A model generated the notes under the pieces. That model had not been told where the DNA came from. It did no database searches and worked only from the letters and a program-made list of their open reading frames with translations. A DNA stretch of 41,495 nt from Candidatus Firestoneibacteriota bacterium (GTDB lineage: Bacteria > Oederibacteriota > D2-FULL-39-29 > CAIOVX01). The stretch's first letter is position 1. Each line of letters opens with the position of its first letter. Location of the stretch: the NCBI GenBank assembly GCA_903915125.1, contig CAIWRR010000064.1, positions 1 through 41,495 of the forward strand. The letters are read 5' to 3'. Made by a program: the position numbers and the translations under genes. Positions 14-17,888 of the stretch are shown piece by piece.

Positions 14-43
14 GAAACTCCGGCCTTCAGGCCGCAGAGTTTC
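14..43. repeat. Imperfect hairpin GAAACTC-CGGCC-TTCA-GGCCG-CA-GAGTTTC
   Basis: Inverted repeat read directly. It loosely resembles IS200/IS605-type end hairpins (inference). Confidence 0.6.
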
Positions 44-62
44 ATAAGGTTTATAACGTAAA
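41..62 (+). repeat. 9-bp repeat array copy A (partial): TTCATAA-GGTTTATAA-CGTAAA
   Basis: Same unit and CGTAAA terminus as the copies at 5448, 9851, 9934 and 17847. Confidence 0.65.
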
Positions 63-78
63 GCAAAACAATAACGGA

Positions 79-2151
79 GTGATGATGAAAGACCTGCTGG
101 TTGAAATAGGTGTTGAGGAGATCCCCGCGGGGCAGCTGAAAGGCGCCTCTGAGCAGTTCGCGGGTGGTATCAGAAAAGCGCTTGCTGACGCAAGAATAGA
201 GTCCGGCGCTGTTGAAATATTTGCAACCCCGAGAAGGATTGGGGTCGTTTTTAAATCGGTTTCCGAGGGGCAAAAAGAAGCCGCGGCCGAAGTAATGGGG
301 CCTCCGAAACGCATTGCTTATGACGCTGACGGCAAGCCCACGCAGGCGGCGCTCGGTTTCGCGAAGACCAACGGAGTCGATATCGCGGAAGTAAGAATAA
401 AATCGCTTCCAAAAGGCGAGTATCTTTGTGTTATGAAGCTCGAGAAGGGGCAAAAGACGGAAGCCCTCCTGCCTGAAATTATCACAAAGCAGATAGCCTC
501 AATAAGCTGGGCGAAAACTATGAAATGGCACGGCGACGCGAGATTCGTGCGCCCTGTCCGCTCGCTGCTCTGTCTCTTCGGGAAGGAACTCCTGAGGGTT
601 GAATACTCTGATGTTATTTCCTCAAACAGGGTTTTTGGGCACAGAATCCTAAGCCCCAACCCGGCGCAGGTATCGGAACCGGAAAAATACAGGGATATTC
701 TGAAGAAGCTTTTCGTCACGGCGTCTTTTGAAGAGAGAAAGGCGCAGGTGCTTGAGGAAGTGAAAAAGGCGCTTGCCGGGATTCCCGGAAGGGCGCTCCT
801 TGACGAAGACCTGGTTGAAGAGATTACAAACCTTGTTGAGTTTCCCTCCGGAATACTCGGCTCATTCGACAGGAAATACCTTGAGCTTCCCGGAGAGCTG
901 CTGATAGAGGTTATGAAAAAGAATCAGAAGTATTTCCCGGTGCTGGATTCCTCGGGCCGGCTGCTTCCGTATTTTATCTGCATAAGAAACGGTTCAAGCC
1001 TGCACAATGAGATAGTCAAAGAAGGAAACGAAAGGGTCCTGCGCGCTAGGTTTGAGGACGCTGCCTTCTTTTTCAACGAGGATAAAAAGACCCGCCTCGG
1101 CGACAGGGCGGTGAAGCTGAAAAATGTGGTCTTCCAGGTAGAACTTGGAAGCCTTTACGAGAAGATAGAAAGGATTAAGGTCCTTTACGCAAAGGCCTCG
1201 GTGTCATTTCCCGGTTCAGATGCTCAAAAGGTGAACAGGGCGCTGGAACTCTGCAAGGCGGACCTGGTGACAGATATGATACGCGAGTTCCCTGAACTGC
1301 AGGGGATAATGGGCAGGGAGTACGCCAAGGTTGACGGCGAAGACGCTGAAGTTGCCTCGGCTATCGCGGAACATTACCTGCCAAAATTCTCGGGGGACGC
1401 TCTTCCTCAGACGGTTACCGGCAGAGTATTGAGCATACTTGACCGCATAGACACAATCAGCGGCTGCTTTGCCATCGGGCTGGTTCCGACCGGCTCGCAG
1501 GACCCTTACGGCCTCAGAAGAAGCACTCTCGGCGTTATAAATGAAATATTGAAGTTCAATCTGGACCTTTCCGTGAAGGAGCTTGTTAAATACTCGCTTG
1601 AGACTTACGGGAGTAAGTTGAAAGGCGACGCAGGCAAAATATGCAATGATATCCTGGAATTCTTTAAGGGCAGAATGGATGTAATCCTTCGGGAAAAGGG
1701 CCTGCGCTACGACCTTGTGAACGCCGTCCTCGCTACAGACTGCAGCAATATCACCGAGGCCTTTAAACGGGCCGGAGTGCTTGACGCGCTCGCCAAAGCG
1801 GAAGGTTTTAACAATACAATGGTGACTTTCTCGAGGGTCATTAATATTATTCCGAAAGATGGAAAGCCTGCGGCAGTTAAATCGGGGCTTTTTAAGGATG
1901 AGTCCGAGAAAAAGTTGTTTGAACTTGCTGTGGCGGCGGAGAAGGAATTCAAGCAGTTGACTGCCGGCGGGAAATACGCCGAAGCTTTTGCGCTTCTTAC
2001 AAAACTTGCTCCGGCGATAGACGAGTTCTTCACCGGCGTAATGGTGATGGACAAGGACCAGGAAGTCAAGGCGAACCGCCTCGCTCTGCTCGCGTTCATC
2101 AGTTCCATGTTCCTTCAAGTGGGAGATTTCTCGAAGATTAATACCAAGTAA
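79..2151 (+). CDS. glyS: Glycine--tRNA ligase beta subunit
   Basis: N-terminal DLLVEIGVEEIPA, TPRR, F(V)RPVR, KADLVTDMIREFPELQGIMG, PTGSQDPYGLRR and C-terminal NRLALL motifs. True start may be ATG 82 or 85 after GGAG. Confidence 0.97.
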   Translation: MMMKDLLVEIGVEEIPAGQLKGASEQFAGGIRKALADARIESGAVEIFATPRRIGVVFKSVSEGQKEAAAEVMGPPKRIAYDADGKPTQAALGFAKTNGVDIAEVRIKSLPKGEYLCVMKLEKGQKTEALLPEIITKQIASISWAKTMKWHGDARFVRPVRSLLCLFGKELLRVEYSDVISSNRVFGHRILSPNPAQVSEPEKYRDILKKLFVTASFEERKAQVLEEVKKALAGIPGRALLDEDLVEEITNLVEFPSGILGSFDRKYLELPGELLIEVMKKNQKYFPVLDSSGRLLPYFICIRNGSSLHNEIVKEGNERVLRARFEDAAFFFNEDKKTRLGDRAVKLKNVVFQVELGSLYEKIERIKVLYAKASVSFPGSDAQKVNRALELCKADLVTDMIREFPELQGIMGREYAKVDGEDAEVASAIAEHYLPKFSGDALPQTVTGRVLSILDRIDTISGCFAIGLVPTGSQDPYGLRRSTLGVINEILKFNLDLSVKELVKYSLETYGSKLKGDAGKICNDILEFFKGRMDVILREKGLRYDLVNAVLATDCSNITEAFKRAGVLDALAKAEGFNNTMVTFSRVINIIPKDGKPAAVKSGLFKDESEKKLFELAVAAEKEFKQLTAGGKYAEAFALLTKLAPAIDEFFTGVMVMDKDQEVKANRLALLAFISSMFLQVGDFSKINTK

Positions 2152-2162
2152 AATACGGAGTG

Positions 2163-2171
2163 TGCTATACT
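2163..2171 (+). promoter_or_regulatory. Extended -10 (TGcTATACT), probable leaderless promoter
   Basis: TATACT at 2166-2171 is 6 nt before ATG 2178, with no SD in between. Confidence 0.55.
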
Positions 2172-2429: not shown

Positions 2430-3110
2430 ATGAAACTAGTGATCTTTGATGTTGATAACACCCTTACCAATACAGGCAGGGCCGACCAGGATTGTTTCCT
2501 GCAGGCCGTAAACTATGTTTTTAACATAAAAGACATAGATACCGACTGGTCTCACTACAAGAATGTAACCGCCATTTCAATTCTGGATCAAATACTCCGC
2601 GCGAAGTCAGGGAAAGTCCCCAGGAAAAGAGAGATTTCGGATATGCGCGACGCGTTCCTGTCAAACCTGAAAGAAAAGTCAAAAAAGCGGCCGGGAGAGT
2701 TCTCGGAAGTGCCGGGCGCTTCAAATATGATGACGGAACTTCTCAGGAAGAGCGAATTTGCTTCCGCTATCGCGACGGGAAGTTTCGCGGACGGGGCGGC
2801 GTTTAAGCTTGAATTCGCAAAAATACCCTACAAGAAATATTGCATCGCTTCAGGCGCGGAATGTTTTACCCGGGAAGAGTTGATAGATATAGCAGTGACG
2901 AAGGCAAAGTCTGTTTACGGCGTCTCGAACTTTGAAAGCGTAATCAGCGTCGGCGACGGCATCTGGGACCTTAAGACCGCTTCGAATATCGGCATGCCCT
3001 TTGTCGGGGTGGGTAACAAGCAGGTGCTTGAACAGAACGGGGTGAAGTACTGGGTCAACGATTACCGCGACCTGCCGGGTTTCTTCAGTATGCTGGCTGG
3101 CGCTGTTTAG
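2430..3110 (+). CDS. HAD-superfamily hydrolase (phosphoglycolate phosphatase-like)
   Basis: Motif I FDVDNTLT, motif II ATGS, motif IV VGDGIWD. Confidence 0.9.
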   Translation: MKLVIFDVDNTLTNTGRADQDCFLQAVNYVFNIKDIDTDWSHYKNVTAISILDQILRAKSGKVPRKREISDMRDAFLSNLKEKSKKRPGEFSEVPGASNMMTELLRKSEFASAIATGSFADGAAFKLEFAKIPYKKYCIASGAECFTREELIDIAVTKAKSVYGVSNFESVISVGDGIWDLKTASNIGMPFVGVGNKQVLEQNGVKYWVNDYRDLPGFFSMLAGAV

Positions 3111-3523
3111 GAGATTTTCTTTTGCAGGACAAGCAGATCTGTTCTTGTGCCCCAGCCGGACTTCTTCCAGAACTTTCTTCCGCTGATATTACTTTTGTAT
3201 ACGAAAATATTGCATTTTGCTATTTCCAGCGCGTTTAAACCGTAGAGGCAGGCGTTAACCAGGCTTGTTCCTATACCTTTGCTTCTGAAATCCGGAGCCA
3301 CGGCGAGATGATGAATATAACCTCTTCTGCCGTCGTGCCCGCATAACACCGCGCCTATGATTCTTTTCTCCGACACGGCCACAAACGAAAGGCCGGGATT
3401 CCTTTTTAAATAAGAGTTTATCTCTTTCTTGTTGTCGCCGTCTCCGGTTCCTATGCCTTTTGTGTTGCTCCAGAGCGCAACCACTTGAGCATGGTCTTTA
3501 ATGGTCATTATTCTGATTAACAT
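3107..3523 (-). CDS. GNAT acetyltransferase (YpeA-like)
   Basis: GHDGRRGYIHHLAV and RSKGIG acetyl-CoA motif. Start moved to ATG 3523 because GGAGGA precedes it. Confidence 0.9.
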   Translation of the reverse strand: MLIRIMTIKDHAQVVALWSNTKGIGTGDGDNKKEINSYLKRNPGLSFVAVSEKRIIGAVLCGHDGRRGYIHHLAVAPDFRSKGIGTSLVNACLYGLNALEIAKCNIFVYKSNISGRKFWKKSGWGTRTDLLVLQKKIS

Positions 3524-3612
3524 GCTGGAATCCTCCATTATTTTGAAGTCTCTTTATGATATTATACATTATTGTGACCGTCCTGTAAAAGGCTAGGCCA
3601 ACTAGAGGTGGT

Positions 3613-4386
3613 ATGAAAAATAATTCTGTTTTTGACCAGTCGCCGTATACTTGCAGGATGGATTGGGGAATTCACGGCGCAATATCTGCCGCGGACAGGG
3701 GCGATATTATTATAATTGTTGATGTATTGAGCTTCTCTTCGGCGGTTGCCGCGGCAGTTCATCACGGTGCGGTAATCTACCCTTTCCCGATGTCAGGCAA
3801 AATAGCGGATTTTGGCAGGGCGACGGGCGCTAAAGTTCTGAAGGGAAAGAGAGAGGCAAAGCTGTCCGGGGAGCCGTCACTCTCGCCTGTTTCGTTCAAC
3901 AGGGCCTGTAAAGGAAAGAAATATGTTATGTCTTCTTTGAACGGCGCGGCTTGCGCGAAGGCCTCCGCAAAAGTTCCGGCTCTTTTTGCAGGGTCTCTTC
4001 TGAACGCGAGAAAGACCGCAAAGGCGGCGGAAAGCGTAAGGGAAAAAACTAAATCGAGTATCACCGTTATTGCCTGCGGAGAAAGAATAAACGGAAGCCC
4101 TGAACTTCGCCCGTGCATTGAGGATTATCTTGGCGCCGGAGCCATCCTAAATGAACTTTCCGGAAGTAAATCCCCGGAAGCCGGCGTCTGCTCAGGCGCT
4201 TTTGAAAATGCAAGTTCAAAACTTGAGCAGTTAGTAGGCGATTGCGCCAGCGGCAGAGAATTGAAGGCGGCCGGATTTGGAAAGGATGTATTGTTCGCGG
4301 CGAGACTCAATGTCATAAGAGAAGTGCCCGTACTTATCCAGGACGACCTGCATAAACCATACTTCAAGGCATATTCTTCTGAATGA
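3613..4386 (+). CDS. comB: 2-phosphosulfolactate phosphatase (ComB) family protein
   Basis: IVDVLSFSS, SLSP, SLNGA, ACGE, RPCIEDYLGAGAI, SGREL motifs. Confidence 0.85.
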   Translation: MKNNSVFDQSPYTCRMDWGIHGAISAADRGDIIIIVDVLSFSSAVAAAVHHGAVIYPFPMSGKIADFGRATGAKVLKGKREAKLSGEPSLSPVSFNRACKGKKYVMSSLNGAACAKASAKVPALFAGSLLNARKTAKAAESVREKTKSSITVIACGERINGSPELRPCIEDYLGAGAILNELSGSKSPEAGVCSGAFENASSKLEQLVGDCASGRELKAAGFGKDVLFAARLNVIREVPVLIQDDLHKPYFKAYSSE

Positions 4387-4460
4387 AAAACTCCGGTCTC
4401 CGGGGGATATATAATGAGCGAAATTATTTTAAAATAGGGAATAAACCCTAAAACACTTAA

Positions 4461-5408
4461 TTGAAATTACAGGGAGCCGCTAAAGTGCCGCAAACGGAAA
4501 GAAACATAAGAAAAGGGAAGCTATATGGCGTTATTGCTGCTTTAACCTGGGTCACAATCTGGCCGCTCTCGAAGATAATAACCAGGGATTACCCTTCAAT
4601 AGACCAGTTTTTTATTGCGTTCGTCAGGTTTTTTTCAGCGGCCCTCGCGATATTTTGCATCTTTCTGATAAAGAAAGAAAGGTCATTCCTTTCGACCGTA
4701 AAAAACCACTGGCGGCTTGCGCTGCTTCTCGGTTTTTTTGGCATTTTTGGCATGGGTTCGCTGGTATTTTTCTCAATCAAATATACCAGTTCGGTGAACT
4801 CCGCGCTGCTGATGAATTCCAACGCCATGTTCATAATAGTATTCTCCGTGTTTATCGGGGAGAAGATCACGCCTGCCAAAGGAATCGGCGCGCTGCTCGG
4901 GGCTTTCGGATGCTACCTGATAATCAATAACGGTTTTGGCCTCAAGCTGTTTTCCAGCGCGACCTTGAAAGGAGACCTGCTCGCGCTGGGAGCCGCGGTT
5001 TGTTGGGCAATATATACGGTTGTAGGCAGGGCCAGGGTTAAGAATGTAAATTCCACTCATATTTCCGCTCTGAACTTCTTCTTTGGCTCGCTGATGATAC
5101 TGGCGCTTACCTTTATACTTGGCGTACCGGCAACGGGCATATTCCAGCCGGTGCCTTTTTCAATGATGCTCTACATCGGCCTGATACCAACGGCCTATGG
5201 TTTTACCATCTGGTATTACGCGCTGGAGCATGTTGAAGCCGGCGCGCTCGGGCTTTACCAGTTCCTGGTACCGCTTCTAACAGCCATCATAGGCGTCTTA
5301 TTCCTTAATGAAACCTTCACTGTTTTTACTTTTTTCGGAATGGTTGCAATATTGTCGGGAATAATTCTTACCGGAATTATCGGCGGAGAAAAACCCGCGG
5401 GTGATTAG
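4461..5408 (+). CDS. DMT/EamA family transporter
   Basis: About 10 hydrophobic segments in two EamA-like halves; GDLLAL..A.CWA.Y motif. Start uncertain (GTG near 4484 possible). Confidence 0.88.
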   Translation: MKLQGAAKVPQTERNIRKGKLYGVIAALTWVTIWPLSKIITRDYPSIDQFFIAFVRFFSAALAIFCIFLIKKERSFLSTVKNHWRLALLLGFFGIFGMGSLVFFSIKYTSSVNSALLMNSNAMFIIVFSVFIGEKITPAKGIGALLGAFGCYLIINNGFGLKLFSSATLKGDLLALGAAVCWAIYTVVGRARVKNVNSTHISALNFFFGSLMILALTFILGVPATGIFQPVPFSMMLYIGLIPTAYGFTIWYYALEHVEAGALGLYQFLVPLLTAIIGVLFLNETFTVFTFFGMVAILSGIILTGIIGGEKPAGD

Positions 5409-5418: not shown

Positions 5419-5446
5419 AAAAGGCCCCGGTCTCCCGGGGCCTTTT
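5419..5446. terminator. Bidirectional intrinsic terminator
   Basis: AAAAGGCCCCGG-TCTC-CCGGGGCCTTTT between convergent EamA and fba genes. Confidence 0.85.
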
Positions 5447-5447: not shown

Positions 5448-5480
5448 TTTACGTTAAGAACGTTACAAACGTTATGAACG
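5448..5480 (-). repeat. 9-bp repeat array copy B: CGTTCATAA-CGTTTGTAA-CGTTCTTAA-CGTAAA
   Basis: Begins 1 nt after the fba stop codon and ends at the terminator. Confidence 0.9.
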
Positions 5481-5481: not shown

Positions 5482-6390
5482 TTATTCGTGATGTTTAATC
5501 TCAGACGCCGTAATTCCGCTCTTCGCCCCTGCTATAATTCCCTTTCCCTTGCAGCCGAAGTAGCCGATATATTCCCTTACTCTGTCCTTAACCGCGTTCT
5601 TGCCCGGGAGGAGGATCTTTCTCATATCTTTTTCCGCGGGGTTCTTGTTGTAGGTCGCGCCGACTGCTTCGACGAAGGAAACGGAAAGCTGGGTCGCCAC
5701 ATTAATCTTGCAGAGGCCGTTCGCGATGCCTTCTATTATTGAAGCCGGGTCAACGCCGGACGAGCCGTGAAGCACCAGTGGTATATTTACGACCTGGCGA
5801 ATTCTCTTAAGCCTCGGTATATCAAGCTTCGCGGTTCTGTCCTTCATTGCATGGACTGAGCCGATCGCGACTGCGAGGGAGTCTATCTTGGTGAGTTCAA
5901 TGAATTTTACCGCTTCATCCGGCTGGGTCATTGCTTTTTCAACCTGTTCAGGAGATACTTTGTCGGCTGACTGGAGCACTTTGCCGAGTTCCGCTTCCAC
6001 AGGGATGCCGCAGGCGTGGGACATTTCCGTGATCTTCGCCGTCATCTTTACGTTCTCTTCGAAGGAGAGCGCCGAGCCGTCGAACATAAGGGAAGTGAAG
6101 CCGGCCCTTAAACACCTTACATTCTGCAGGTAATCAGTGCCATGGTCAAGGTGAAGGATTACCGGGACCGATGCGAGTTCCGCGGCCGCTTTTACTATTG
6201 CGGTCGACATTTCAAGGCCCGCGTATTTTATCGCGCCCTGGCTTACCTGGATGATCACAGGCGCTTTTTCTTCTTCCGCTGTCTCTATGATAGCTTCCAC
6301 GAACTCCATATTGTTCGCGTTAAACGCGCCGATAGCGAATTTCTCCGCCTGCGCTTTGAGCAACCATTCCTTGCTGTTTACTAACGGCAT
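5482..6390 (-). CDS. fba: Class II fructose-1,6-bisphosphate aldolase
   Basis: GAFNANN, HLDHG, FTSLMFDGS, VEAELG, LVLHGSSG, KINVAT; AGGAGG SD. Confidence 0.93.
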   Translation of the reverse strand: MPLVNSKEWLLKAQAEKFAIGAFNANNMEFVEAIIETAEEEKAPVIIQVSQGAIKYAGLEMSTAIVKAAAELASVPVILHLDHGTDYLQNVRCLRAGFTSLMFDGSALSFEENVKMTAKITEMSHACGIPVEAELGKVLQSADKVSPEQVEKAMTQPDEAVKFIELTKIDSLAVAIGSVHAMKDRTAKLDIPRLKRIRQVVNIPLVLHGSSGVDPASIIEGIANGLCKINVATQLSVSFVEAVGATYNKNPAEKDMRKILLPGKNAVKDRVREYIGYFGCKGKGIIAGAKSGITASEIKHHE

Positions 6391-8079: not shown

Positions 8080-8136
8080 ATTTCAGCGGCAGGAAACCGG
8101 TCAATGGGTTTCGCCCTGATAAATCATGGAGGAAGC

Positions 8137-9843
8137 ATGGCGGCTTTGGAGAATGTACTGAATAAGAGCGACAAAAGCAATTCGTTGTTTGAGGCGGAAA
8201 TAAGGAAGATAAAAATTCCGGTCTGCAAGCAGTTCTTGAAAGGCGGAAAGATTTCGCCGGTTGATTTTAAGGCTTCAAAAGATTCAGTATCCTCAAAGGA
8301 CTCAACTAAAGTCTTTGCTAGTTTCCCCAACCTTAGGGAGACCGCTTCAAAAGTAATGCAGGGAGTGCGCGGCGGTAAGAGACCTAAACTAAAGGGCAAG
8401 AGGATTGCCGTGCTCTTCTCCGGCGGGCCTGCAGCCGGCGGACACAACGTGGTCGCCGGGCTCTTTGATATGCTCGCGGCTTCCAAATGCACGCTGCTCG
8501 GCGTTAAGGCCGGGCCAAAGGGGCTCATAAACGGGGACCTTTTTATGGTTAAAGCGGAAGATATCAAAAGAATTAAGAATACCGGCGGTTTTGATTACCT
8601 CGGTTCTGACAGAACCAAGATAAAGACTGAAGAGCAGTTCGCCGCGGTAAAGAAGACCTGCGTGGACAACAAACTTGACGCTATTGTGGTGGTAGGCGGA
8701 GACGATTCCAATACCAATGCCGCTGTTCTCGCGGAGTATCTTTATATAGGAGTCAAACCGGACGGTTCCGGCGTTCAGGTAATAGGCGTTCCCAAAACTA
8801 TAGACGGAGACCTGCAGATAGGAAAGTTCCTGCCAATATCTTTCGGTTTTGACACCGCGACTAAGATTTTTGCCGAGATGGTTGGCAATATACTTCAGGA
8901 TACGCCGTCCTCCAGGAAGTACTGGCATTTCATTAAACTCATGGGACGCGCGGCAAGCCACGTCGCTCTTGAGGTGGCGCTTCAGACTAAACCTGCGATA
9001 GCTCTTATCTCGGAAGAGGTCGCGGAAAAGAAAATGGCCCTCGCCGATATAGTCAAGCAGATAGGCGACACCGTAATCAACCGCGCAGGAAACAAAATGA
9101 ATTATGGCGTGGTGGTTGTTCCGGAAGGGTTGATTGAATTTATTCCGGAAATGAACCTGTTGATTCACGAGCTTAATCATATTGTCGCGAAACACGAGAA
9201 AGAAACTGCGGAACTGGAACTTGCAAAGAAGATAGATTTTGTGAGGGCAAAACTTTCCGAAGAGCACAGCAGTCTCTTTGCGAGCCTGCCGCATTACATC
9301 CAGGAGATGCTGCTCTTTGACCGCGATTCCCACGGCAACCTTCAGGTTTCTCAGATACCGACAGAAAAGCTGCTTATTGATATGGTGAAGAAGTACGTGA
9401 AAAAAACAGCTCCCGAGACGAAATTTTCCACGCTAAACCATTTCTTCGGCTATGAAGGCAGGTGCGGCGCGCCTTCGCTCTTTGACGCGGCCTATTGTTA
9501 TAACCTGGGCCTTACAGCAGGCGCGGCTATCGTTAACGGTATGACCGGCTACATAGTGTCTTTCACGCAGCTTGATAAAGGCGGAGAGATTCTTGCTATT
9601 CCTCTTGTCGGACTCTTAAATATCGAGATGAGACACGGCAAGGAAGAGATGGTGATAGAAAAAGCGCTTGTTAAGACCGATTCTCCGGCCTTCATGTATT
9701 TCGCCGTTAACAGGGCCAGGTGGGGAGAAAAAGACCTCTTTACGTCTCCGGGGCCGCGCCAGCTCTGGGGGCCTGTCTGCAACCAGATGCCTATGACAGT
9801 GGCGTTAAATCAGGGGTATGGGAAATTAGGGTTTAAAATATAA
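8137..9843 (+). CDS. pfp: Pyrophosphate--fructose-6-phosphate 1-phosphotransferase (long-clade PPi-PFK)
   Basis: SGGPAAGGHN, GGDD (Asp indicates PPi specificity), PKTIDGD, LMGR, FGYEGR; ATG 8137 after GGAGG. Confidence 0.93.
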   Translation: MAALENVLNKSDKSNSLFEAEIRKIKIPVCKQFLKGGKISPVDFKASKDSVSSKDSTKVFASFPNLRETASKVMQGVRGGKRPKLKGKRIAVLFSGGPAAGGHNVVAGLFDMLAASKCTLLGVKAGPKGLINGDLFMVKAEDIKRIKNTGGFDYLGSDRTKIKTEEQFAAVKKTCVDNKLDAIVVVGGDDSNTNAAVLAEYLYIGVKPDGSGVQVIGVPKTIDGDLQIGKFLPISFGFDTATKIFAEMVGNILQDTPSSRKYWHFIKLMGRAASHVALEVALQTKPAIALISEEVAEKKMALADIVKQIGDTVINRAGNKMNYGVVVVPEGLIEFIPEMNLLIHELNHIVAKHEKETAELELAKKIDFVRAKLSEEHSSLFASLPHYIQEMLLFDRDSHGNLQVSQIPTEKLLIDMVKKYVKKTAPETKFSTLNHFFGYEGRCGAPSLFDAAYCYNLGLTAGAAIVNGMTGYIVSFTQLDKGGEILAIPLVGLLNIEMRHGKEEMVIEKALVKTDSPAFMYFAVNRARWGEKDLFTSPGPRQLWGPVCNQMPMTVALNQGYGKLGFKI

Positions 9844-9850: not shown

Positions 9851-9883
9851 CGTTCATAACGTTTGGAAGGTTTATAACGTAAA
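9851..9883 (+). repeat. 9-bp repeat array copy C: CGTTCATAA-CGTTTGGAA-GGTTTATAA-CGTAAA
   Basis: Begins 7 nt after the pfp stop codon. Confidence 0.85.
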
Positions 9884-9904: not shown

Positions 9905-9930
9905 AAAAGGCCTGAGAAATCAGGCCTTTT
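9905..9930. terminator. Bidirectional intrinsic terminator
   Basis: AAAAGGCCTGA-GAAA-TCAGGCCTTTT between convergent pfp and helicase genes. Confidence 0.88.
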
Positions 9931-9933: not shown

Positions 9934-9975
9934 TTTACGTTATAAACGTTAAGAACGTTACAAACGTTATAAACG
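9934..9975 (-). repeat. 9-bp repeat array copy D: CGTTTATAA-CGTTTGTAA-CGTTCTTAA-CGTTTATAA-CGTAAA
   Basis: Begins 8 nt after the helicase stop codon on the minus strand. Confidence 0.92.
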
Positions 9976-9983: not shown

Positions 9984-11261
9984 TTAATGTTTACTCTGGT
10001 ATAAAATCTTAATCCCCGGCCCGGTATAAATATCCGAATCCTTCACCTCTGCTTTAGTCTGTCCCTGTCGGGCGCCCTTAAGCCCTCTTTTCCTTCCGCC
10101 CCACGAACTTCCCGCGGAAATAGTTGAGGACAGCTTTTCCGACGGATAAATAGGGTGCGAAGCGAGCGGTATTGACGCGTTAATTATTTTCTCGATGCTT
10201 TTTACGTCAGCGCCCTGGTCCGGAGTCGCAAGTGTTATGGCGTGCCCCTTTCTGCCTGCTCTGCCGGTCCTGCCTATGCGGTGAACATAATTCTCCGGAT
10301 CGTCAGGTATCTCGTAGTTTATGACAAGTTCGATGTCGGTCACGTCAATGCCGCGAGCGGCTATATCAGTTGCCGCGAGTATTCTGAATTTGCCTGATTT
10401 GAACCCGTCGAGGGCTTCTTTCCTCTGGGACTGTGTCCTGTCGGAATGAATCTCGGAGGCTTTGTGCCCGAGCTGGCGGAGCGTTGAAGTTATTTTTGCT
10501 GCAGCTCTCTTGGTTCTGGTGAAGAGCAGAACCGAACCGCTATATTCCTTTAAGAGTTCGTTAAGCAATTTATTCTTGAGTTCCTTACTGACAACGAAAA
10601 GTTCCTGCGTGACAGTTTCCGCCGCGGTACCTGACGGCGCGATCTCCGTCCGGACCGGCAGCTGCATGTATCTTCTCGCGATATCAACTATTCCAAAAGG
10701 CATTGTTGCCGAGAAGAGCATTGTCTGTCTTTCCTTGGGAATCAACCTGATGATCCGCTCTATCTGCGGAAGGAAGCCCATATCGAGCATCCTGTCTGCT
10801 TCGTCCAGAACAAGGACTTCAACATTTTTAATATTTACGGTTTTGCGCTCCAGATGGTCGTTAAGCCTTCCCGGAGTGGCTATAATGATTTGAGGGTTAT
10901 GAGCTAAGGCCTGGTTCTGACCGAACATAGATACTCCGCCTATAAGCACGGCAGTCTTCATTTTGAAGAGGGGGGCAAGTTTTTGAAATGATTCTTCGAC
11001 CTGGATGGCTAATTCCCTTGTTGGCACAAGCACAAGTCCGCGTCCCTTGCCGTTCGCAAGCCGCTGTATCATCGGTATAGCGAATGCAAGGGTTTTTCCT
11101 GTGCCTGTCTGCGCAATGCCAATAATGTCTTTTCCTGCTATGGCCTGCGGGATTGCTTTGCTCTGGATGGGGGTCGGAACCTTGAAATTTAACTTCTCGA
11201 GAGCATCGAAAATGCCCGGCGCAATGCCGAGCCCGTAAAAACTTTCTTTTTCATTTTCCAT
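9984..11261 (-). CDS. DEAD-box RNA helicase (RhlE-like)
   Basis: Q motif PTPIQ, AQTGTGKT, PTRELA, TPGR, DEAD, SAT, ARGID, HRIGRTGR. Confidence 0.96.
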   Translation of the reverse strand: MENEKESFYGLGIAPGIFDALEKLNFKVPTPIQSKAIPQAIAGKDIIGIAQTGTGKTLAFAIPMIQRLANGKGRGLVLVPTRELAIQVEESFQKLAPLFKMKTAVLIGGVSMFGQNQALAHNPQIIIATPGRLNDHLERKTVNIKNVEVLVLDEADRMLDMGFLPQIERIIRLIPKERQTMLFSATMPFGIVDIARRYMQLPVRTEIAPSGTAAETVTQELFVVSKELKNKLLNELLKEYSGSVLLFTRTKRAAAKITSTLRQLGHKASEIHSDRTQSQRKEALDGFKSGKFRILAATDIAARGIDVTDIELVINYEIPDDPENYVHRIGRTGRAGRKGHAITLATPDQGADVKSIEKIINASIPLASHPIYPSEKLSSTISAGSSWGGRKRGLKGARQGQTKAEVKDSDIYTGPGIKILYQSKH

Positions 11262-14297: not shown

Positions 14298-15779
14298 ATG
14301 CTATTAACACTGGTGACATTCATCCCGCTCATCGGAGGGTTGGCTCTCTTATTCGTTCCGAAGGGCAAGGACGATATCGTAAGGGGCATAGCAACCGCGG
14401 CAGCCGCGGTCGCGCTTATTCTGTCGGTTATAGTCCTTCTGGGATACGACAAGAGCCTGGCCGGAATGCAGTTTGTTGAACATCGCATCTGGATTCCTTC
14501 CCTGAATGTCACATATTATTTGGGAGTGGACGGGCTGAGCATCGCGATGCTCGTTCTTACTACGCTGCTTTCACTTATCTCTGTCATATATTCCTACAAT
14601 ATTACCTCAAGGGTAAAGGAGTACTTTTTCTTCTTCCTGCTTCTTGAAACCGGCATGCTCGGGGTTTTCCTGGCTCTTGATTTCTTCCTTTTTTATGTCT
14701 TCTGGGAAATCACCCTTGTCCCGATGTATTTCCTCATCGGCATCTGGGGCGGCCCGCGCAAGGAATACGCGGCAATTAAGTTCTTCCTTTACACCTTGTT
14801 TGGAAGCGTCATTATGCTGTTGGGTATTATCGCGCTCTATTTCGCGAGTCCTTCGCATACTTTCAATATGCTTGAGCTGGCTGAACAGGCTCCGACGTTC
14901 ACAAAATTGTTCCAGAATGTTATTTATGCGGCGCTCTTTATCGGATTCGCCATAAAGGTTCCGGTCTTCCCGTTCCATACCTGGCTTCCGGACGCCCACG
15001 TGGAAGCGCCGACGGCAGTCAGCGTAATCCTTGCCGGCGTACTGCTCAAAATGGGCACTTACGGAATGCTTAGGGTCAGTTTTAGCATACTTCCGCAGGC
15101 TGTTTTGTATTTTGCCATGCCGCTCGCGGTTCTGGCAATGATAAACATAATTTACGGCGCCTACTGTGCGATGGCGCAGAAAGACCTGAAAAAAATGATT
15201 GCCTACTCTTCAATCAACCACATGGGTTATGTTTTGCTGGGAATGGCGGCTATGACAACGGCCGGTTTAAACGGAGCCATCTTTCAGATGTTCAATCACG
15301 GTATCATAACCGGAGCGCTCTTCCTTCTGGTGGGTGTTATTTATGACAGGGCGCATACAAGGGACATCGAAGGTTTCGGCGGGCTTGGTTCAATTATGCC
15401 TGTTTATACGGGTATTATGATGGTTGCGGTTTTTGCTTCCCTGGGCCTCCCCGGTCTCTCGGGTTTCTGGTCTGAATTTATGTGTTTCCTCGGCGCATTC
15501 CAGGTTCAAAATACGTGGATGAAGATTATTACCGGCCTCTCAGCGATAGGCATCGTGGTGACAGCGGCGTATTTCCTTATAATGATTCAGAAAGTATTCC
15601 TTGGGCCGGCCAATGAAAAGTGGAAGAGCCTGCCGGAGATTAATAGGAGAGAACTTATCACTGTCGTTCCTCTTATTGTCATTATGGTGGTTCTGGGCTT
15701 CCTGCCGAGAATAGTTATGGAACTTTCTTCCAAAAACGTTGATTCAATGGTTAAGATGCTGGGGGCTATCAAGCCATGA
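14298..15779 (+). CDS. nuoM: NADH-quinone oxidoreductase subunit M
   Basis: FYVFWEITLVPMYFLIGIWGG, KVPVFPFHTWLPDAHVEAPT, LKMG.YG, LGLPGLSGF..EF; ATG 14298 after AGGAGG. Confidence 0.95.
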   Translation: MLLTLVTFIPLIGGLALLFVPKGKDDIVRGIATAAAAVALILSVIVLLGYDKSLAGMQFVEHRIWIPSLNVTYYLGVDGLSIAMLVLTTLLSLISVIYSYNITSRVKEYFFFFLLLETGMLGVFLALDFFLFYVFWEITLVPMYFLIGIWGGPRKEYAAIKFFLYTLFGSVIMLLGIIALYFASPSHTFNMLELAEQAPTFTKLFQNVIYAALFIGFAIKVPVFPFHTWLPDAHVEAPTAVSVILAGVLLKMGTYGMLRVSFSILPQAVLYFAMPLAVLAMINIIYGAYCAMAQKDLKKMIAYSSINHMGYVLLGMAAMTTAGLNGAIFQMFNHGIITGALFLLVGVIYDRAHTRDIEGFGGLGSIMPVYTGIMMVAVFASLGLPGLSGFWSEFMCFLGAFQVQNTWMKIITGLSAIGIVVTAAYFLIMIQKVFLGPANEKWKSLPEINRRELITVVPLIVIMVVLGFLPRIVMELSSKNVDSMVKMLGAIKP

Positions 15780-17233
15780 ACACTGTGTCACTTAAGGATT
15801 TTATATACCTGATTCCGGAGTCCTTTGTCCTCTGTCTGGGTATTTTGATACTTATATTGGATCTTTTTACCCCTGTCAATATTAGGCGCAAGCATGTACT
15901 CAATATTTCAGTTTTGGGGCTGCTGCTTTCTCTGCCGCTCCTTGTTTACGCTCCCCCAAAAGGCCTGATATTGGGAGACATGGTTTCAATTGACACCTAT
16001 GCCATCTTCTTTAAATGTATAATAGTCCTCTCGGCTGTGTTTGCGCTGACTATGGCAAAGTTCTACGCTCCGATAAAGGATGAGGTTATAGGAGAATTCT
16101 CGGCGCTTGTTGTTTTCGCAGTCCTCGGTATGATGTTCATGGTTTCATCGAGCGACCTTCTGATGATATTCTTGAGCGTGGAATTCGTAAGTATTGCTTT
16201 CTTCATTCTCACTGGATACATCAAGAACGACCCTAAGTCTGCAGAGGGAGCGCTAAAGTATTTCCTTATAGGGGCTTTTTCGGCAGGCATCTTTGTCTAC
16301 GGAATGTCACTGGTAATTATCTCAACCGGAACCTCAAATTTGAAAGCTATGTCCGGAATATTGCACGCTCCAGCGGGCTACAGCCCGCTCTTTTTAACCG
16401 GATTCCTGCTTATGCTGGTTGGGTTCGGCTACAAGATTGCGATGGTGCCGTTCCATACTTGGGCGCCCGACGCCTATGAAGGCGCTCCGACTCCGGTAAC
16501 CGCGCTTCTTTCCGCCGCTTCAAAGGCAGCGGGTTTTGCGGTATTGCTGAGGGTGGCATTGGCCGCCGTGACCGGCAGAGCAGACCTGGTACTGGCATTG
16601 GCGGTGCTTTCCGCGCTTACGATGACTGCCGGAAACCTGATGGCGCTCCAGCAGAACAATGTCAAAAGGCTGCTTGCTTACTCAGGAATAGCTCACTCAG
16701 GCTATATCCTAATGGGGGTTGTCGCGGCGTGCTCAGGAACTGAACCGGAGCTTGGAATTACCTCGGTGTTGCTCTACGCTTTTGTCTACATGCTCATGAA
16801 TATAGGCGTATTTGCCGTGATAATTGCTTTCTTCAATAAAACCGGAAACGATGACATGCAGTCCTACTCCGGTATTTCAAAGAGCAATCCTTATCTCTCG
16901 CTGGTGCTGGTCGTTTTTCTCGTTTCGCTCGCCGGGATACCTCCTACGGCCGGGTTTATCGGGAAATTTTACGTTTTCTCGGCAATAATAAAAGCCGGCC
17001 CTAAGTTCCTGTGGCTTGCGATTGTAGGAATAATGAACAGCGTGGTTGCGCTCTACTACTATTTCAGAATTGCCTATTTTGTCTATTTTGGCGCGCAGAA
17101 AGACGACGGAAAAGTTGAGATCACTGCCGGACTTGCCGTTATAGCGGGTGTTACCGCAGGTCTGGCCCTGCTAGTCTGCATTTATCCGGGACCGTTTATT
17201 TCCGCAGCCAAGGTATCTGTCTTAATACCATGA
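15776..17233 (+). CDS. nuoN: NADH-quinone oxidoreductase subunit N
   Basis: EGALKYF, KIAMVPFHTWAPDAYEGAPTP, KRLLAYSGIAH, SLAGIPP.AGF.GK; ATGA overlap with nuoM. Confidence 0.95.
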   Translation: MNTVSLKDFIYLIPESFVLCLGILILILDLFTPVNIRRKHVLNISVLGLLLSLPLLVYAPPKGLILGDMVSIDTYAIFFKCIIVLSAVFALTMAKFYAPIKDEVIGEFSALVVFAVLGMMFMVSSSDLLMIFLSVEFVSIAFFILTGYIKNDPKSAEGALKYFLIGAFSAGIFVYGMSLVIISTGTSNLKAMSGILHAPAGYSPLFLTGFLLMLVGFGYKIAMVPFHTWAPDAYEGAPTPVTALLSAASKAAGFAVLLRVALAAVTGRADLVLALAVLSALTMTAGNLMALQQNNVKRLLAYSGIAHSGYILMGVVAACSGTEPELGITSVLLYAFVYMLMNIGVFAVIIAFFNKTGNDDMQSYSGISKSNPYLSLVLVVFLVSLAGIPPTAGFIGKFYVFSAIIKAGPKFLWLAIVGIMNSVVALYYYFRIAYFVYFGAQKDDGKVEITAGLAVIAGVTAGLALLVCIYPGPFISAAKVSVLIP

Positions 17234-17835
17234 CGAAAATATTCATGGCGTTTCTCTTTGCAGTCTGGGCTATACCGGTTCTTGCCGATAATCAGCCTCA
17301 GCCGCAGGCGACTCCCGAGAGAAGTCAGCCGGTTTTTGGTCCCAAAATTGAAGAACTCTCCGTGAAACAGGCAGAAATAGCGGGCGAGATTCTTACAATT
17401 AAAGGTTCTGTCAGGTGGTTGTCTGAAAGAATTAGTATTGTAACGAAGGACGTTGCCTCCGGGAATAATGCGTCTGAACTTCTCGGGGCTGATTTGAAAA
17501 AAACGCAGGCTGGTTTGGATAGGGCTATAAAACAAGCCTCTGCCTTTGCGGATGACCTTGATTCTTTGAAGGCAAAACTGGGTTACCTTGCAGATGAATC
17601 AAAGGTCAGGTCTGACGATTTTAGGAGTTTGCGCGAGAACATCTCTTCTTTGAAGAAAAGCGTGGATGAGAACACCGAGAGCCTTATTGATTGCCGTAAA
17701 ACATGCCTGCAGCTGCGCGATGAATTAAACAAGAGCAGCAGGTTGACGCCGGAAGATCCTGCCGGCTGGCCCTATTGGGGAGTGGCCGGGACGGCGGTTG
17801 GGATACTCGCGTTGATTTTAGCGATAGTGAAATAA
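17230..17835 (+). CDS. Hypothetical exported coiled-coil protein with C-terminal membrane anchor
   Basis: Signal-peptide-like N-terminus, heptad-rich middle, hydrophobic C-terminus; ATGA overlap with nuoN. Confidence 0.75.
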   Translation: MTKIFMAFLFAVWAIPVLADNQPQPQATPERSQPVFGPKIEELSVKQAEIAGEILTIKGSVRWLSERISIVTKDVASGNNASELLGADLKKTQAGLDRAIKQASAFADDLDSLKAKLGYLADESKVRSDDFRSLRENISSLKKSVDENTESLIDCRKTCLQLRDELNKSSRLTPEDPAGWPYWGVAGTAVGILALILAIVK

Positions 17836-17846
17836 TACCATAAAAA

Positions 17847-17888
17847 AGTTTGTAACGTTCTTAACGTTTGTAACGTTTGTAACGTAAA
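17847..17888 (+). repeat. 9-bp repeat array copy E: AGTTTGTAA-CGTTCTTAA-CGTTTGTAA-CGTTTGTAA-CGTAAA
   Basis: Lies 11 nt after the upstream stop and just before the yicC SD. Confidence 0.92.

Follow-up and report, generated by a model that had tools for sequence, protein, structure and literature searches.

Results and Discussion

Five oriented arrays beside genes

The window, the whole stretch of 41,495 nt that we analysed, comes from a lake bacterium of the candidate phylum Firestonebacteria with a genome of 2.01 Mb (coded G000). Five short tandem arrays, A to E, stand in it beside genes that include glyS, a class-II fructose-bisphosphate aldolase gene (fba), a phosphofructokinase gene, a DEAD-box helicase gene and yicC (Table 1). 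All five had been listed in an initial annotation of the sequence and all five are there: the motif AACGTTNNNAACGT matches 13 times in the window against 0.05 expected (100 shuffles, largest value 2), and Tandem Repeats Finder reports 9-nt periods at arrays B, D and E. As that annotation had it, each copy is sense to the gene that ends beside it, and one reading frame carries TAA, in fact in every unit of the window arrays.

Table 1. Arrays, hairpins, mobile-element end and flanking genes in the window
Feature	Position	Strand	Description
MITE-1 right end	1..45	+	Non-autonomous mobile element of ~115-140 nt, ending ...GCAGAGTTTCAT
Array A remainder	46..62	+	AAG (end of split unit), GTTTATAAC, terminal GTAAA
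Two-way terminator-like hairpin	5423..5446	.	GC-rich stem with flanking A and T runs
Array B	5448..5479	-	Three units, GTTCATAAC GTTTGTAAC GTTCTTAAC, plus GTAAA
Class-II fructose-bisphosphate aldolase gene	5482..6390	-	Array B head 2 nt after its TAA
Phosphofructokinase gene	8104..9843		Array C starts 8 nt past its TAA
Array C	9852..9883	+	GTTCATAAC GTTTGGAAG (degenerate middle unit) GTTTATAAC plus GTAAA
GC-rich terminator hairpin	9909..9930	.	GGCCTGA-gaaa-TCAGGCC with T run; enclosed by arrays C and D
Array D	9934..9974	-	GTTTATAAC GTTTGTAAC GTTCTTAAC GTTTATAAC plus GTAAA
DEAD-box helicase gene	9984..11261	-	Array D head 9 nt after its TAA
Array E	17848..17888	+	GTTTGTAAC GTTCTTAAC GTTTGTAAC GTTTGTAAC plus GTAAA; 12 nt beyond the stop of a gene whose end is 17835 and 16 nt ahead of the yicC start
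yicC start codon	17905		AGGAG between array E and the start codon

Array A, which is sense to both glyQ and glyS, stands in the spacer between them and is the 3' remainder of an array split by MITE-1, which inserted 3' of TTTAT within a unit; the other half sits at the end of contig C238. The array had been placed from position 41; its plus orientation stands but its start does not, positions 1-45 being the end of MITE-1. This end is not a member of the array family, and it shows that arrays tolerate insertions. Positions 1-40 have 29 BLAST matches in G000 (19 near-full-length), and MITE-1 has many copies in the related genomes G001 and G002, whose orthologous glyQ-glyS spacers lack it and hold an uninterrupted array.

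Array B separates the aldolase stop codon from a hairpin between the convergent aldolase and EamA-family genes. The site downstream of fba is also occupied in G001, G002, G003 and G005, and its occupancy spans family f3 and two genera of f1. Array D is the tail-to-tail partner of array C, and the two arrays with the hairpin between them are predicted to fold as one long stem (plus strand, -48.6 kcal/mol with z=-8.0; minus strand, -48.0 kcal/mol with z=-9.3). The solo arrays E, B and A have no notable fold (z=-0.27, -2.1 and -0.39), that of array E being without significance; the site of array E has 3+2 units in G001 and 1 unit in G002.

Anatomy of the array family

A strict caller found 237 arrays of the unit GTTYNTAAV in the genome, with unambiguous orientation in all 237. 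Arrays have 2 (71 arrays), 3 (50), 4 (102), 5 (11), 6 (2) or 8 (1) units, so that the mode is four with a sharp fall at five, and 163/237 carry a terminal piece, GTAAA, GTAAG, GAAAA or GTAAT. Among 775 units six positions are fixed, each more than 99% invariant, and positions 4, 5 and 9 vary, position 4 being a pyrimidine in 741. Identical adjacent units are depleted (77/538 vs 20% expected, p=0.0006), and unit orders are nearly all unique: the commonest four-unit order occurs three times among 102 arrays. The same oriented unit and terminal piece at 237 loci, the avoidance of identical neighbours and the preferred size bear out the earlier view that these are not slippage microsatellites, a class we reject. 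The almost wholly unique orders and the dissimilar neighbours speak against a second earlier suggestion, that some mechanism adds repeats at gene ends.

The AACGTT palindrome that had been noted at unit junctions is dispensable, and a role for it is not supported: 52/237 arrays lack it and use AAGGTT or AAAGTT instead. AACGTT is rare outside arrays (191 found vs 532 expected for the whole genome), but this deficit is not specific, because TTCGAA is similarly under-represented (469 vs 1080).

Placement and polarity relative to genes

Placement was counted against gene positions from crude ORF calls, outside which 233/237 arrays fall. The genome scan that had been proposed for orientation and stop distance upheld the pattern of the window: the array head has a same-strand gene upstream in 142 cases and an opposite-strand gene in 61 (p=1e-8), and the head follows the preceding stop codon at a median of 9 nt (IQR 4-32), while the tail precedes the next start codon at a median of 92 nt. 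Of the spacers that measure 40 nt or more, 19/70 between convergent genes, 68/551 between co-directional genes and 3/78 between divergent genes hold an array. The stop codon before an array is TAA in 90/107 cases, compared with 794/1730 genome-wide; this excess persists when the stop lies 5-60 nt away (59/69), and the leader is A/T-rich. Only one of the 31 tRNA and tmRNA genes, a tRNA-Lys gene, has an array within 150 nt, in sense, 12 nt past its 3' end.

About 30% of arrays are inverted, with the head against the ribosome-binding site of the next gene. These antisense arrays precede start codons by ~8-25 nt. Among the 61 arrays whose head has an opposite-strand gene upstream, 10 or more are solitary and adjoin a start codon or ribosome-binding site. 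At the yicC site of G005, G008 and G009 there is only an antisense array, beside the ribosome-binding site, and in an unrelated genome, G101, heads point toward start codons 12 times and toward stop codons four times. The rule that the head faces the nearest gene body covers the stop- and start-codon cases more simply than does a model based on RNA.

Arrays are not themselves intrinsic terminators, an identity we rejected since a GC-rich hairpin with a U run is not an array property. A general link to terminators, as first annotated, also failed: only 19/100 sense arrays have a hairpin with a T run in the 90 nt past the tail. Terminator-like hairpins occur at 35/119 gene ends with an array and at 112/577 without one. 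Nor did the gene classes flanked, which had been put forward for examination, show a link to arrays, and the link to codon bias is weak. Among the flanked genes, which stand in conserved synteny, are glyS, fba, pfk, secA, groES, the DEAD-box helicase gene and a nuo-adjacent gene. Arrays cluster most densely upstream of ybaB and of a response-regulator operon; nothing connects these genes to the arrays.

Inverted pairs

Neighbouring arrays form 39 tail-to-tail pairs and a single head-to-head pair, and the former are predicted to fold into a long A/U-rich stem. Partnered arrays reach -22 to -35 kcal/mol against downstream sequence, where random sequence gives about -13. The base at position 9 is common to the partner arms in 74% of comparisons against 51% in shuffles, a value reached by 0/3000 shuffles, and is not common to tandem neighbours. 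The unit centres of partner arms are less alike than chance (37% vs 45%). Of the arrays with at least three units, 63 have no partner.

Conservation in place and dialects

Of the 62 mappable arrays of G001 and G002, 48 have the same place and orientation in G000, whereas unit number is kept in only 19/52 orthologous arrays. In the 14 orthologous arrays of equal length, differences affect 2/324 sites at the fixed positions, 7/54 at position 4 and 15/54 at position 5 (22/108 for both centre positions together), and 97/420 in the 30 nt after the tail. Arrays thus keep their places and their units are under position-specific constraint; purifying selection could be imitated by gene conversion between copies. 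In the comparison of orthologous junctions that had been called for, the clearest site differing between species is not empty and holds unrelated hairpins. One spacer has an array pair in G002 and GC-rich hairpins in G000.

GTT units were found in 10/10 genomes of f1 and f3, families that belong to one order, and in 0/88 other genomes of the phylum searched (98 in total); the sister family f2 is without arrays. Dialects with GTC units of 9 nt and of 10 nt occur only in f3, and abundance varies 100-fold among related genomes, from 2 matches in G007 to 269 in G001. GTTYNTAAV arrays with other tails appear in genomes titled Ignavibacteriales, Bdellovibrionales and Gammaproteobacteria and in that of an unclassified bacterium. 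The family is therefore not restricted to one genus, and because arrays are present in independent genomes, assembly artefacts are ruled out.

Candidate readers and movers

Searches for known RNA-binding readers found an RRM_1 domain in 0/3 genomes of the genus and neither Hfq nor CsrA in any of five genomes; Rho is present in 5/5, including the array-free G004. Y1-transposase genes (PF01797) number three in G000 and give seven matches in G004, and the two checked closely are flanked by inverted repeats, GGGGACAG...CTGTCCCC, not by arrays. No match to the integron integrase model TIGR02249 reaches its cut-off of 265 bits in any of the five genomes; the best scores 86.5 in G000 and 87.8 across all five, and the sub-threshold matches, which occur in all five, are XerC/D-like. 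Neither target-site duplications nor element boundaries are seen at arrays. Arrays are insertion targets: an array stands no more than 70 nt from 31/53 MITE-2 hairpin copies and from 16/29 IS-end copies, though only 2% of the genome is that close. Because insertions of 75-140 nt are tolerated, single array copies are not essential.

Relation to known repeats

REP/BIME elements and REPINs with their RAYT transposases occur as hundreds of extragenic copies, mostly at gene 3' ends and within operons. A REP is an imperfect palindrome of 20-40 nt with a GTAG or CGTC head; REPs have lineage-specific dialects, occur as singlets and inverted doublets, are favoured targets of insertion sequences, and have been proposed to act in mRNA 3' protection and termination. 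The arrays resemble them in high copy number, extragenic position (233/237), lineage dialects, singlets with inverted doublets and use as insertion targets. We rejected this identity: a single array is a direct repeat without a fold rather than a self-folding palindrome, the two Y1 genes checked closely are not flanked by arrays, and PF01797 does not track arrays, as G004 shows. Of MITE features, the pairs have inverted arms, but no duplication is seen and 48/62 sites are common between species. With no matching Rfam family and neither the REP fold nor a linked transposase, the earlier expectation of no match held for described REPs.

Integron attC sites lie directly downstream of an ORF in the same orientation, conserve AAC/GTT triplets and fold into an imperfect hairpin with unpaired central bases. 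Arrays resemble them in all three respects; an attC or gene-cassette origin was rejected, the five genomes having no integrase match at the cut-off, the flanked genes being housekeeping genes in conserved synteny, and 63 arrays being solo. The lineage dialects and the inverted pairs near terminators resemble those of DNA uptake sequences (DUS/USS); a gene orientation as strong as that of the arrays is not expected for uptake signals.

To our knowledge, short oriented intergenic repeats (TAACTGA, STRR) have been noted in a few bacteria and never explained; STRR are cyanobacterial heptamers. The closest precedent for GTTYNTAAV arrays in the literature searched is the TAACTGA repeat, an intergenic direct repeat of marine Beggiatoaceae, some Cyanobacteria and Bacteroidetes (MacGregor, 2015; PMC4679880), for which that report gives 169 sets of 2-6 copies each, leaves the function unexplained and proposes an RNA-binding reader. 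As presented there, both families consist of 2-6 short units head to tail in more than 100 sets per genome, almost all intergenic, oriented to genes and often interrupted by related variant units; both have a patchy phylogenetic spread with no evident transfer mechanism and no link to gene function, and both units contain TAAC. By the same account they differ in that TAACTGA is an exact heptamer, whereas our unit has 9 nt (10 nt in relatives), a degenerate centre and a fixed terminal piece. TAACTGA repeats point to start codons, end 1 nt before them and replace the ribosome-binding site, whereas the arrays of this genus have their heads behind stop codons and leave ribosome-binding sites intact; pairs in inverted orientation, common here, are a single case there. 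Long simple sequence repeats with units of 5-11 nt (Mrazek, 2007, as described in PMC4679880) and STRR likewise have tandem short units, over-represented in scattered lineages and mostly non-coding, but their runs of identical units are thought to be slippage-born, whereas here neighbours avoid identity and arrays have a head, a tail, a preferred size and orthologous positions.

The initial annotation had proposed an undescribed system. In the literature searched no description matches the array family, nor does any Rfam family, and to that extent the proposal stands, but TAACTGA is a described analogue. Besides this analogue, that annotation had missed the inverted ~30% of arrays and the span of two families with its dialects. 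Beyond TAACTGA and STRR, the array family adds orthologous sites across species, genera and families, which those lacked, together with constraint within the unit, dialects, a grammar of head to gene and tail to spacer, and covariation between arms.

A candidate transcript-level module

We suggest, with a probability of about 40%, that the arrays are an order-wide, selectively maintained UTR module that acts at the transcript level and is read by a putative co-evolving factor. The module would be an 8-base core, GT(T/C)YNTAA, in head-to-tail copies separated by 1 or 2 bases, and in this genome takes the apparent form of 2-5 copies of the 9-nt GTTYNTAAV, usually closed by a shortened unit such as GTAAR. 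We infer that RNA rather than DNA is read, that the reader is a protein, and that the effect is on mRNA. Dialects of sequence and period imply a co-evolving reader, the confinement of GTT units to f1 and f3 within the phylum also favours such a reader over universal machinery, and a spacer of 1 or 2 nt would suit a single-stranded target better than phased duplex sites. Unstructured alone, the array could serve as a cis element in the UTR that starts immediately after the terminating ribosome, lining up identical docking sites that may each take one protomer of a putative sequence-specific factor, with the likely effect of fixing or protecting the 3' end of the upstream cistron. Inverted tail-to-tail arms would pair into a long stem of 7-bp helices interrupted by 2x2 mismatches, which might act as an intercistronic or terminal stem-loop. 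Against this, the 61 arrays with an opposite-strand upstream gene would be transcribed as the complement, to which one RNA reader would not bind. An extended form of the proposal, a "UTR code", is at best tentative: a dedicated putative co-evolving protein would polymerise head to tail at the boundaries of about one gene in ten, setting mRNA 3' ends or stability after stops and coupling translation of the next gene through complementary arrays at ribosome-binding sites. Its co-evolution with the site would account for both dialects, GTT and GTC, and for periods of 9 and 10 nt. The protein would occur in two Firestonebacteria families, and similar arrays are seen in four or more unrelated genomes.

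Alternatively, the arrays, or their tail-to-tail pairs, may be selfish REP- or MITE-like repeats, spread or renewed by a putative transposase, recombinase or conversion and persisting downstream of genes, where they do least harm; we think this rather doubtful, as we do its corollary that placement reflects target choice (A-rich, TAA-rich sequence) and tolerance instead of host function. Tolerance predicts the order of occupancy seen, convergent above co-directional above divergent, and the excess of TAA among preceding stops, the missing link to gene class with the weak one to codon bias, the 100-fold spread in abundance, the patchy distribution over f1 and f3 but not f2, and the same unit with other tails in other phyla all fit a selfish repeat. 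So does the use of arrays as insertion targets, which known REPs share. Freshly copied inverted ends, however, should be alike, and the arm centres are the opposite; unit orders are nearly all unique, orthologous arrays stay put with their fixed positions nearly unchanged while centres drift, and neither target-site duplications nor element boundaries are seen. As for candidate movers, the two Y1 genes checked closely have a different repeat at their flanks, such genes also occur in G004, which lacks arrays, and no integron integrase was found in the five genomes. Unlikely, in our judgement, is a DNA-level array, in which a nucleoid-associated or regulatory protein would bind the duplex head to tail and mark the boundaries of genes, for instance by insulating topology or transcription there. 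MetJ and omega repressor bind tandem boxes in this way, one protomer per unit; two to five units (mode four) with fixed flanks and a free centre are typical of operator arrays, and one rule, head to gene body and tail to spacer, would hold for stops and starts, in this order and in G101. The near absence of head-to-head pairs and the dense clusters upstream of the response-regulator operon and ybaB also agree with DNA binding. Against it, the unit is asymmetric (a symmetric site would need A at position 4), a core that recurs at either 9 or 10 nt would turn adjacent duplex sites relative to each other, and the position-9 covariation of inverted arms requires strand pairing. A polar roadblock, moreover, fails in operons, where a pair fills the space from stop to ribosome-binding site and leaves no room for a promoter.

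We regard as very improbable an RNA-RNA network, in which sense arrays of 3' UTRs, possibly as released fragments, would pair in trans with antisense arrays at the ribosome-binding sites of other genes and couple their expression. The two kinds of array are suitably placed, any sense array could pair with any antisense array, and the energies of partnered arrays exceed those of random sequence. The idea is purely inferential, though: most antisense arrays of G000 already have a cis partner in the same spacer, genes bracketed by both kinds are not above chance (3/39 vs 92/1525, p=0.51), and Hfq and CsrA were not found in the five genomes. Least credible of all are readings that deny the arrays a common origin or function: minisatellites born of slippage, or a side effect of methylation or restriction at AACGTT. 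Unit number does differ between species at the same site, and AACGTT is scarce outside arrays, but one oriented unit and tail recur at all loci with identical neighbours depleted and sizes dropping sharply beyond four; AACGTT is absent from the GTC dialects as from many GTT arrays, and its deficit is shared with TTCGAA.

The transcript-level module predicts a reader gene that is present in the two array families and absent from the sister family f2. If such a reader exists, the arrays would represent a new level of control, global and acting at gene ends, in a phylum that is uncultivated; if it does not, they would be a clean example of a selfish repeat that looks functional. Contig ends are within 300 nt of 82/237 arrays, and the arrays, with the mobile elements that target them, account for much of the fragmentation of these assemblies.

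Array composition

All five arrays reported by the initial annotation were confirmed in the window sequence with slightly refined limits and, as it had claimed, each has the same sense as the gene ending alongside. The AACGTTNNNAACGT pattern had 13 matches in the window where 100 shuffles predict 0.05, and Tandem Repeats Finder reported a 9-nt period at B, D and E. Across G000, the genome that holds the window (2.01 Mb in 277 contigs, 88% complete, with an assembly fragmented at the very elements studied), we called arrays as at least two successive units at a 9-nt period, each matching GTTYNTAAV at no fewer than 7 of 8 constrained positions. This caller is strict enough to pass over A and C, which are degenerate copies; it found 237 arrays, none of ambiguous strand, comprising two (71 arrays), three (50), four (102), five (11), six (2) or eight (1) units.

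Among the 775 units, positions 1-3 (GTT) and 6-8 (TAA) were each more than 99% invariant. Position 4 was mostly T (461) or C (280); position 5 was A (336), G (263), T (150) or C (26); and position 9 was C (533), G (171), A (59) or T (12). The unit is asymmetric, because a symmetric GTTNNNAAC site would require A at position 4. The shortened terminal unit, or tail, was GTAAA in 95 of the 237 arrays, GTAAG in 35, GAAAA in 17 and GTAAT in 16, and the leader before the arrays is A-rich (56-73% A at -4 and -3). Position-9 C is missing throughout 52 of the 237 arrays, which therefore lack AACGTT; the palindrome initially remarked on at unit junctions is a by-product of one flavour, or position-9 variant.

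The order of units hardly ever recurs between arrays, and in four-unit arrays the outer units are mostly of T type, the inner ones more often of C type. Neighbouring units with identical centres are depleted (77/538, 20.2% expected; p=0.0006) and the size mode is four, bearing out the earlier view that these are no slippage microsatellites. Chance and slippage are excluded as the origin, and growth by 9-bp target duplications of insertion sequences is contradicted by the same deficit of identical neighbours. The densest cluster of the genome (contig C9, 5975-6213) is a tandem series of five whole arrays, each joined to GTAAACAAAAGACAAAA to give a period of 53 nt, at a contig end upstream of an OmpR-type response-regulator/histidine-kinase operon.

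Coordinates of the window arrays, whose flanking genes were named by Pfam, and of mobile-element features in G000
Feature	Location	Strand	Context
Array A	window 46-62	+	before glyS; 3' part of array split by small mobile element with right end at window 1-45
Array B	window 5448-5479	-	after class-II fructose-bisphosphate aldolase; 2 nt past TAA stop
Array C	window 9852-9883	+	after phosphofructokinase gene; 8 nt past TAA stop
Array D	window 9934-9974	-	after DEAD-box helicase gene; 9 nt past TAA stop
Array E	window 17848-17888	+	between last gene of nuo-linked cluster and yicC
MITE-1	window 1-45 (right end); also contigs C271, C253, C248, C238, C212, C210, C153, C120, others		
MITE-2	e.g. C60:646-724, C161:2768-2840, C185:7180-7440		three tandem copies on C185
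Larger-element ends	contigs C104, C128, C168, C199, C240, C247, C2, C142, C197, C226, C267 (examples)		
Y1-transposase (PF01797) genes, ~225-232 aa	C240:1531-2208, C25:5857-6530		bracketed by inverted repeat

Placement relative to genes

Crude ORF-based gene calls (1861 genes over 92% of G000) place only 4 of the 237 arrays within a called gene. Upstream of the head, the first-unit end of the array, the adjacent gene is on the same strand in 142 cases and on the opposite strand in 61 (p=1e-8); 30 arrays at contig ends have no gene there. Both the orientation bias and the closeness to stop codons proposed from the window thus hold genome-wide, the distance from stop to head having a median of 9 nt (IQR 4-32); that from tail to next start codon has a median of 92 nt. 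The stop codon before an array is TAA in 90/107 cases compared with 794/1730 genome-wide (p=5e-16), and where it lies 5-60 nt from the array in 59/69, compared with 273/585 in array-free genes with comparable spacers. When spacers of 40 nt or longer are compared, 19/70 convergent, 68/551 co-directional and 3/78 divergent ones contain arrays, and single arrays in co-directional spacers are sense in 28 cases versus antisense in 10 (p=0.005). Of the 31 tRNA/tmRNA genes, a single one, for tRNA-Lys, lies within 150 nt of an array, which is in sense and 12 nt past the 3' end of the gene. The tRNA gene in the window (37126-37199; Rfam RF00005, 71.3 bits) lies between two co-directional genes and has no adjoining array.

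A general link to downstream terminators was not supported, a terminator-like hairpin following only 19 of 100 sense arrays, and the flanked genes, whose classes the initial annotation had proposed to test, are of all kinds; those at the densest clusters have unrelated functions, and we discarded a functional link there. We also rejected in-frame back-up stops (array TAAs share the frame of the gene in 38/107, the chance level), a marker of high expression (codon bias rises only weakly, the top quartile holding 31% of array-bearing genes; p=0.002), gene cassettes bracketed by arrays (3/39 vs 92/1525; p=0.51), promoters (hexamer spacings within 9-nt units are 4, 13 or 22, never 17) and replichore-type polarity of the Chi or KOPS-like kind (both orientations interleave on one 134-kb contig of G002, another genome of the genus).

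Conservation between species

All five window sites hold arrays in the same orientation in G001 and G002, the other genomes of the genus (coding identity ~80-85%). Unit number and type differ among the three genomes: site E has four units in G000, 3+2 in G001 and one in G002, and C/D in G001 shows a wholesale switch to the AAGGTT flavour. Mapping 62 arrays of G001 and G002 onto G000 via their upstream flank, in related genomes that are not independent samples, we found an array in the same place and orientation at 48 sites, a single unit at 4 and none at 10. The comparison of filled and empty junctions proposed initially therefore came out filled at 48 of 62; it came out otherwise at the 10 sites without an array, and one spacer that holds an array pair in G002 carries unrelated GC-rich hairpins in G000. 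Unit number was kept at only 19 of 52 mapped sites.

In 14 orthologous arrays of equal length, whose flanks are 87.5% identical, we counted differences at 2/324 sites for the six fixed positions, position 4 at 7/54, position 5 at 15/54, position 9 at 2/54, and the 30 nt beyond the tail at 97/420. The caller tolerates one mismatch per unit, so the contrast between fixed and variable positions does not come from detection alone; gene conversion may be an alternative source of the constancy. We conclude that the arrays form an old family that has been retained in place and is under constraint at particular positions of the unit.

Distribution and dialects

Counts in other genomes are pattern matches, not curated arrays. 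Patterns containing AACGTT match 3/30 genomes, and 3/98 with the tail included, a genus-restricted picture that is an artefact, because such patterns miss the AAG- and AAA-type arrays of G003 (sister genus) and G005 (family f3). Downstream of fba, both of these genomes carry sense arrays of AAA, AAG and AAT flavours followed by a terminator, and G004, of family f2, has none. A flavour-neutral pattern, three units of GTTYNTAAN, has matches in 10 of the phylum's 98 genomes searched: 4/4 in family f1 (strand hits 242, 269, 263 and 43) and 6/6 in f3 (91, 109, 35, 74, 2 and 6), with 0 in f2 (G004, 96% complete), f4 and 86 other genomes of the phylum; the reversed-pattern control gave 0 in every genome. 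Family f3 has further dialects, GTCYNTAAN with a 9-nt period in 5/6 genomes and GTCYNTAANN with a 10-nt period in 4/6, neither of them in f1 or f2. At the yicC site, four genomes of f3 (G005, G008, G009 and G006) have antisense arrays beside the ribosome-binding site, not the sense array of this genus. Given these dialects, any reader of the arrays, a hypothesised factor recognising them, must be sequence-specific and itself evolving, since universal machinery would keep the motif constant.

Outside the phylum, multicopy AACGTT-type arrays occur in at least four genomes (strand hits 88, 62, 28 and 9; reversed control 0). Of 10 arrays examined in a genome labelled Ignavibacteriales, 8 lie in sense behind a stop codon. 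Two small genomes have the tail GAGTTMAGYGG and heads mostly toward start codons, and in G101 heads face starts in 12 cases versus stops in 4. Matches in Bacteroidales, which are perfect or very long runs, were not counted as members of the family, nor were those at 20 loci of viral contigs, where short repeats like (GTTTGTAAC)n are perfect or nearly so and all lack a GTAAR tail. The literature searched, including that on Firestonebacteria (titles and abstracts), yielded no description of the 9-nt unit. Closest among described repeats are the TAACTGA heptamers (PMC4679880). They resemble the arrays in the size and number of their sets, their intergenic orientation, their patchy spread and their unexplained function, but have another unit and sit at start codons.

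Paired and solo arrays

Arrays within 120 nt of each other lie tail-to-tail in 39 cases, in tandem in 35 and head-to-head in 1 (p=7e-11). Co-directional spacers begin with the stop codon and a sense array, continue with a 20-50-nt spacer and an antisense array, and after a further ~8-15 nt reach the ribosome-binding site and start codon, and therefore one rule covers all cases: the head points toward the nearest gene body. The two arms of a pair agree at position 9 in 74% of aligned units versus 51% in shuffled partners (reached by 0/3000 shuffles), and at positions 4 and 5 together more rarely than shuffled partners do, in 37% versus 45%; tandem neighbours show no position-9 sharing. Selection for a hairpin at unit centres was rejected, centre identity between arms being actually depleted. 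Paired arms, if formed, would be 7-bp helices split by 2x2 mismatches. The region spanning C, a hairpin and D has a predicted fold of -48.6 kcal/mol (z=-8.0), and solo arrays E, B and A have no notable predicted fold. Among arrays of at least three units, 74 lie close to a partner on the opposite strand, and 63 are genuinely solo; a strong hidden complement lies downstream in only 6 of 52 testable solos.

Candidate readers and possible function

Searches of 5 genomes detected neither Hfq nor CsrA, and Rho is present in 5/5. No integron integrase turned up in 5 genomes. A PUF search gave no hits, but its control was silent too. RRM_1 searches drew a blank in the genus (0/3 genomes) but not in array-free genomes; among 12 genomes searched it is present only in G004 (C72:13636-13830) and in the array-free relative G011 (C21:3819-4013), and in none of 9 array-bearing genomes (f1 0/3 plus G000, f3 0/6). 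RRM_1 and the arrays therefore have opposite distributions, perhaps by chance. Pairing with 16S rRNA in the style of a translational enhancer was rejected, the 16S rRNA of G002 having no 9-mer match; predicted array/16S duplexes in that genome reach -24.2 kcal/mol for sense arrays (shuffles -25.6) and -21.0 for antisense (shuffles -23.2).

We tentatively favour, with a probability of about 40%, a role for the arrays as a transcript-level module. Pointing this way are the sense bias, the start of arrays just past a stop codon and also past a tRNA 3' end, the depletion from promoter-only (divergent) spacers, the unstructured solo arrays, a spacer of either 1 or 2 nt, and the covariation of inverted arms, which needs strand pairing. 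The reading is weakened by antisense solo arrays beside start codons and by the failure of our searches to turn up a candidate reader. By analogy with REP stem-loops, the arrays might define or protect mRNA 3' ends.

The arrays could themselves be a selfish REP-like repeat, a less likely but live reading. They fail the defining tests of REP/RAYT, integron attC, intrinsic terminators and microsatellites, and Rfam gave nothing at gathering score except a tRNA, its sub-threshold hits at C/D being generic hairpin families. Neither Rfam nor the literature searched gave a matching REP or MITE, the identity against which the initial annotation had cautioned. Binding at the DNA level is likewise live, though rather unlikely; as a roadblock, such an array fails inside operons, where an array pair fills the entire spacer, and this failure in turn favours the transcript-level module. 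The boldest variant, a network of RNA-RNA contacts in trans between arrays, strikes us as highly improbable.

Mobile elements at arrays

Arrays are insertion targets of mobile elements. MITE-1, a non-autonomous element of ~115-140 nt (CTTTCAGATGCCGG...GCAGAGTTTCAT) with hairpins near both ends, is always inserted 3' of TTTAT, the unit centre, and no duplication was seen. A blast search with its right end gave 29 matches in G000, 19 of which are near-full-length, and G001 and G002 also have many. Several of the 29 have unit-like flanks, but no more than 2 of 32 signature copies are found within 70 nt of an array that the caller recognised. MITE-1 breaks the assembly at the left edge of the window, and the remaining half of site A is at the end of contig C238. 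MITE-2 (~75 nt, two hairpins, CCGCACTTCGTGCG...GCCGGACTCCGTCCGGCATAGCAGAATAAC) interrupts arrays directly behind ...ATAAG/C, and its hairpin has 53 copies, 31 of them within 70 nt of an array, a zone that makes up only 2% of G000. A larger element with inverted terminal repeats has a shared 13-mer end (GTGTTGCACTTCC...) equally close to an array in 16 of 29 copies. Its two related ends, GTGTTGCACTTCCACATTGAATGTTGC and GTGTTGCACTTCCTTATTGAACTCGTG, both abut array units in either orientation and lie ~40-115 nt from many contig ends, and the element never assembles. A contig end is no more than 300 nt away from 82/237 arrays (8.3% expected), and contigs of four metagenome DNA runs break and pile up at arrays, yielding no usable polymorphism in unit number.

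With no duplication seen, hairpins near their ends and a fixed left pentamer, both MITEs resemble the IS200/IS605 family in behaviour. G000 has three Y1-transposase genes with a flanking repeat of their own, and such genes also occur in array-free relatives. The inverted repeat around those on C240 and C25 is GGGGACAG(N)GCC...GGC(N)CTGTCCCC, and the combination of Y1 genes with their own REP-like repeat is a RAYT-like arrangement unrelated to the 9-nt arrays. A GGGACAG motif similar to this repeat lies upstream of yicC in G004.

Elsewhere in the window, contigs of 4/4 metagenome runs join 3525 to 4471, skipping 3526-4470, and a segment is missing in G001 (~3592-4470) and G002 (~3095-4472); it is therefore variable within and between populations. 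The segment carries a 2-phosphosulpholactate-phosphatase-like gene (3613-4386). Right behind the last gene of the window, at 41383-41416, is a short tandem repeat with an 8/16-nt unit (AGATGCGCGGATGCGC), in ~2 copies of the 16-mer.
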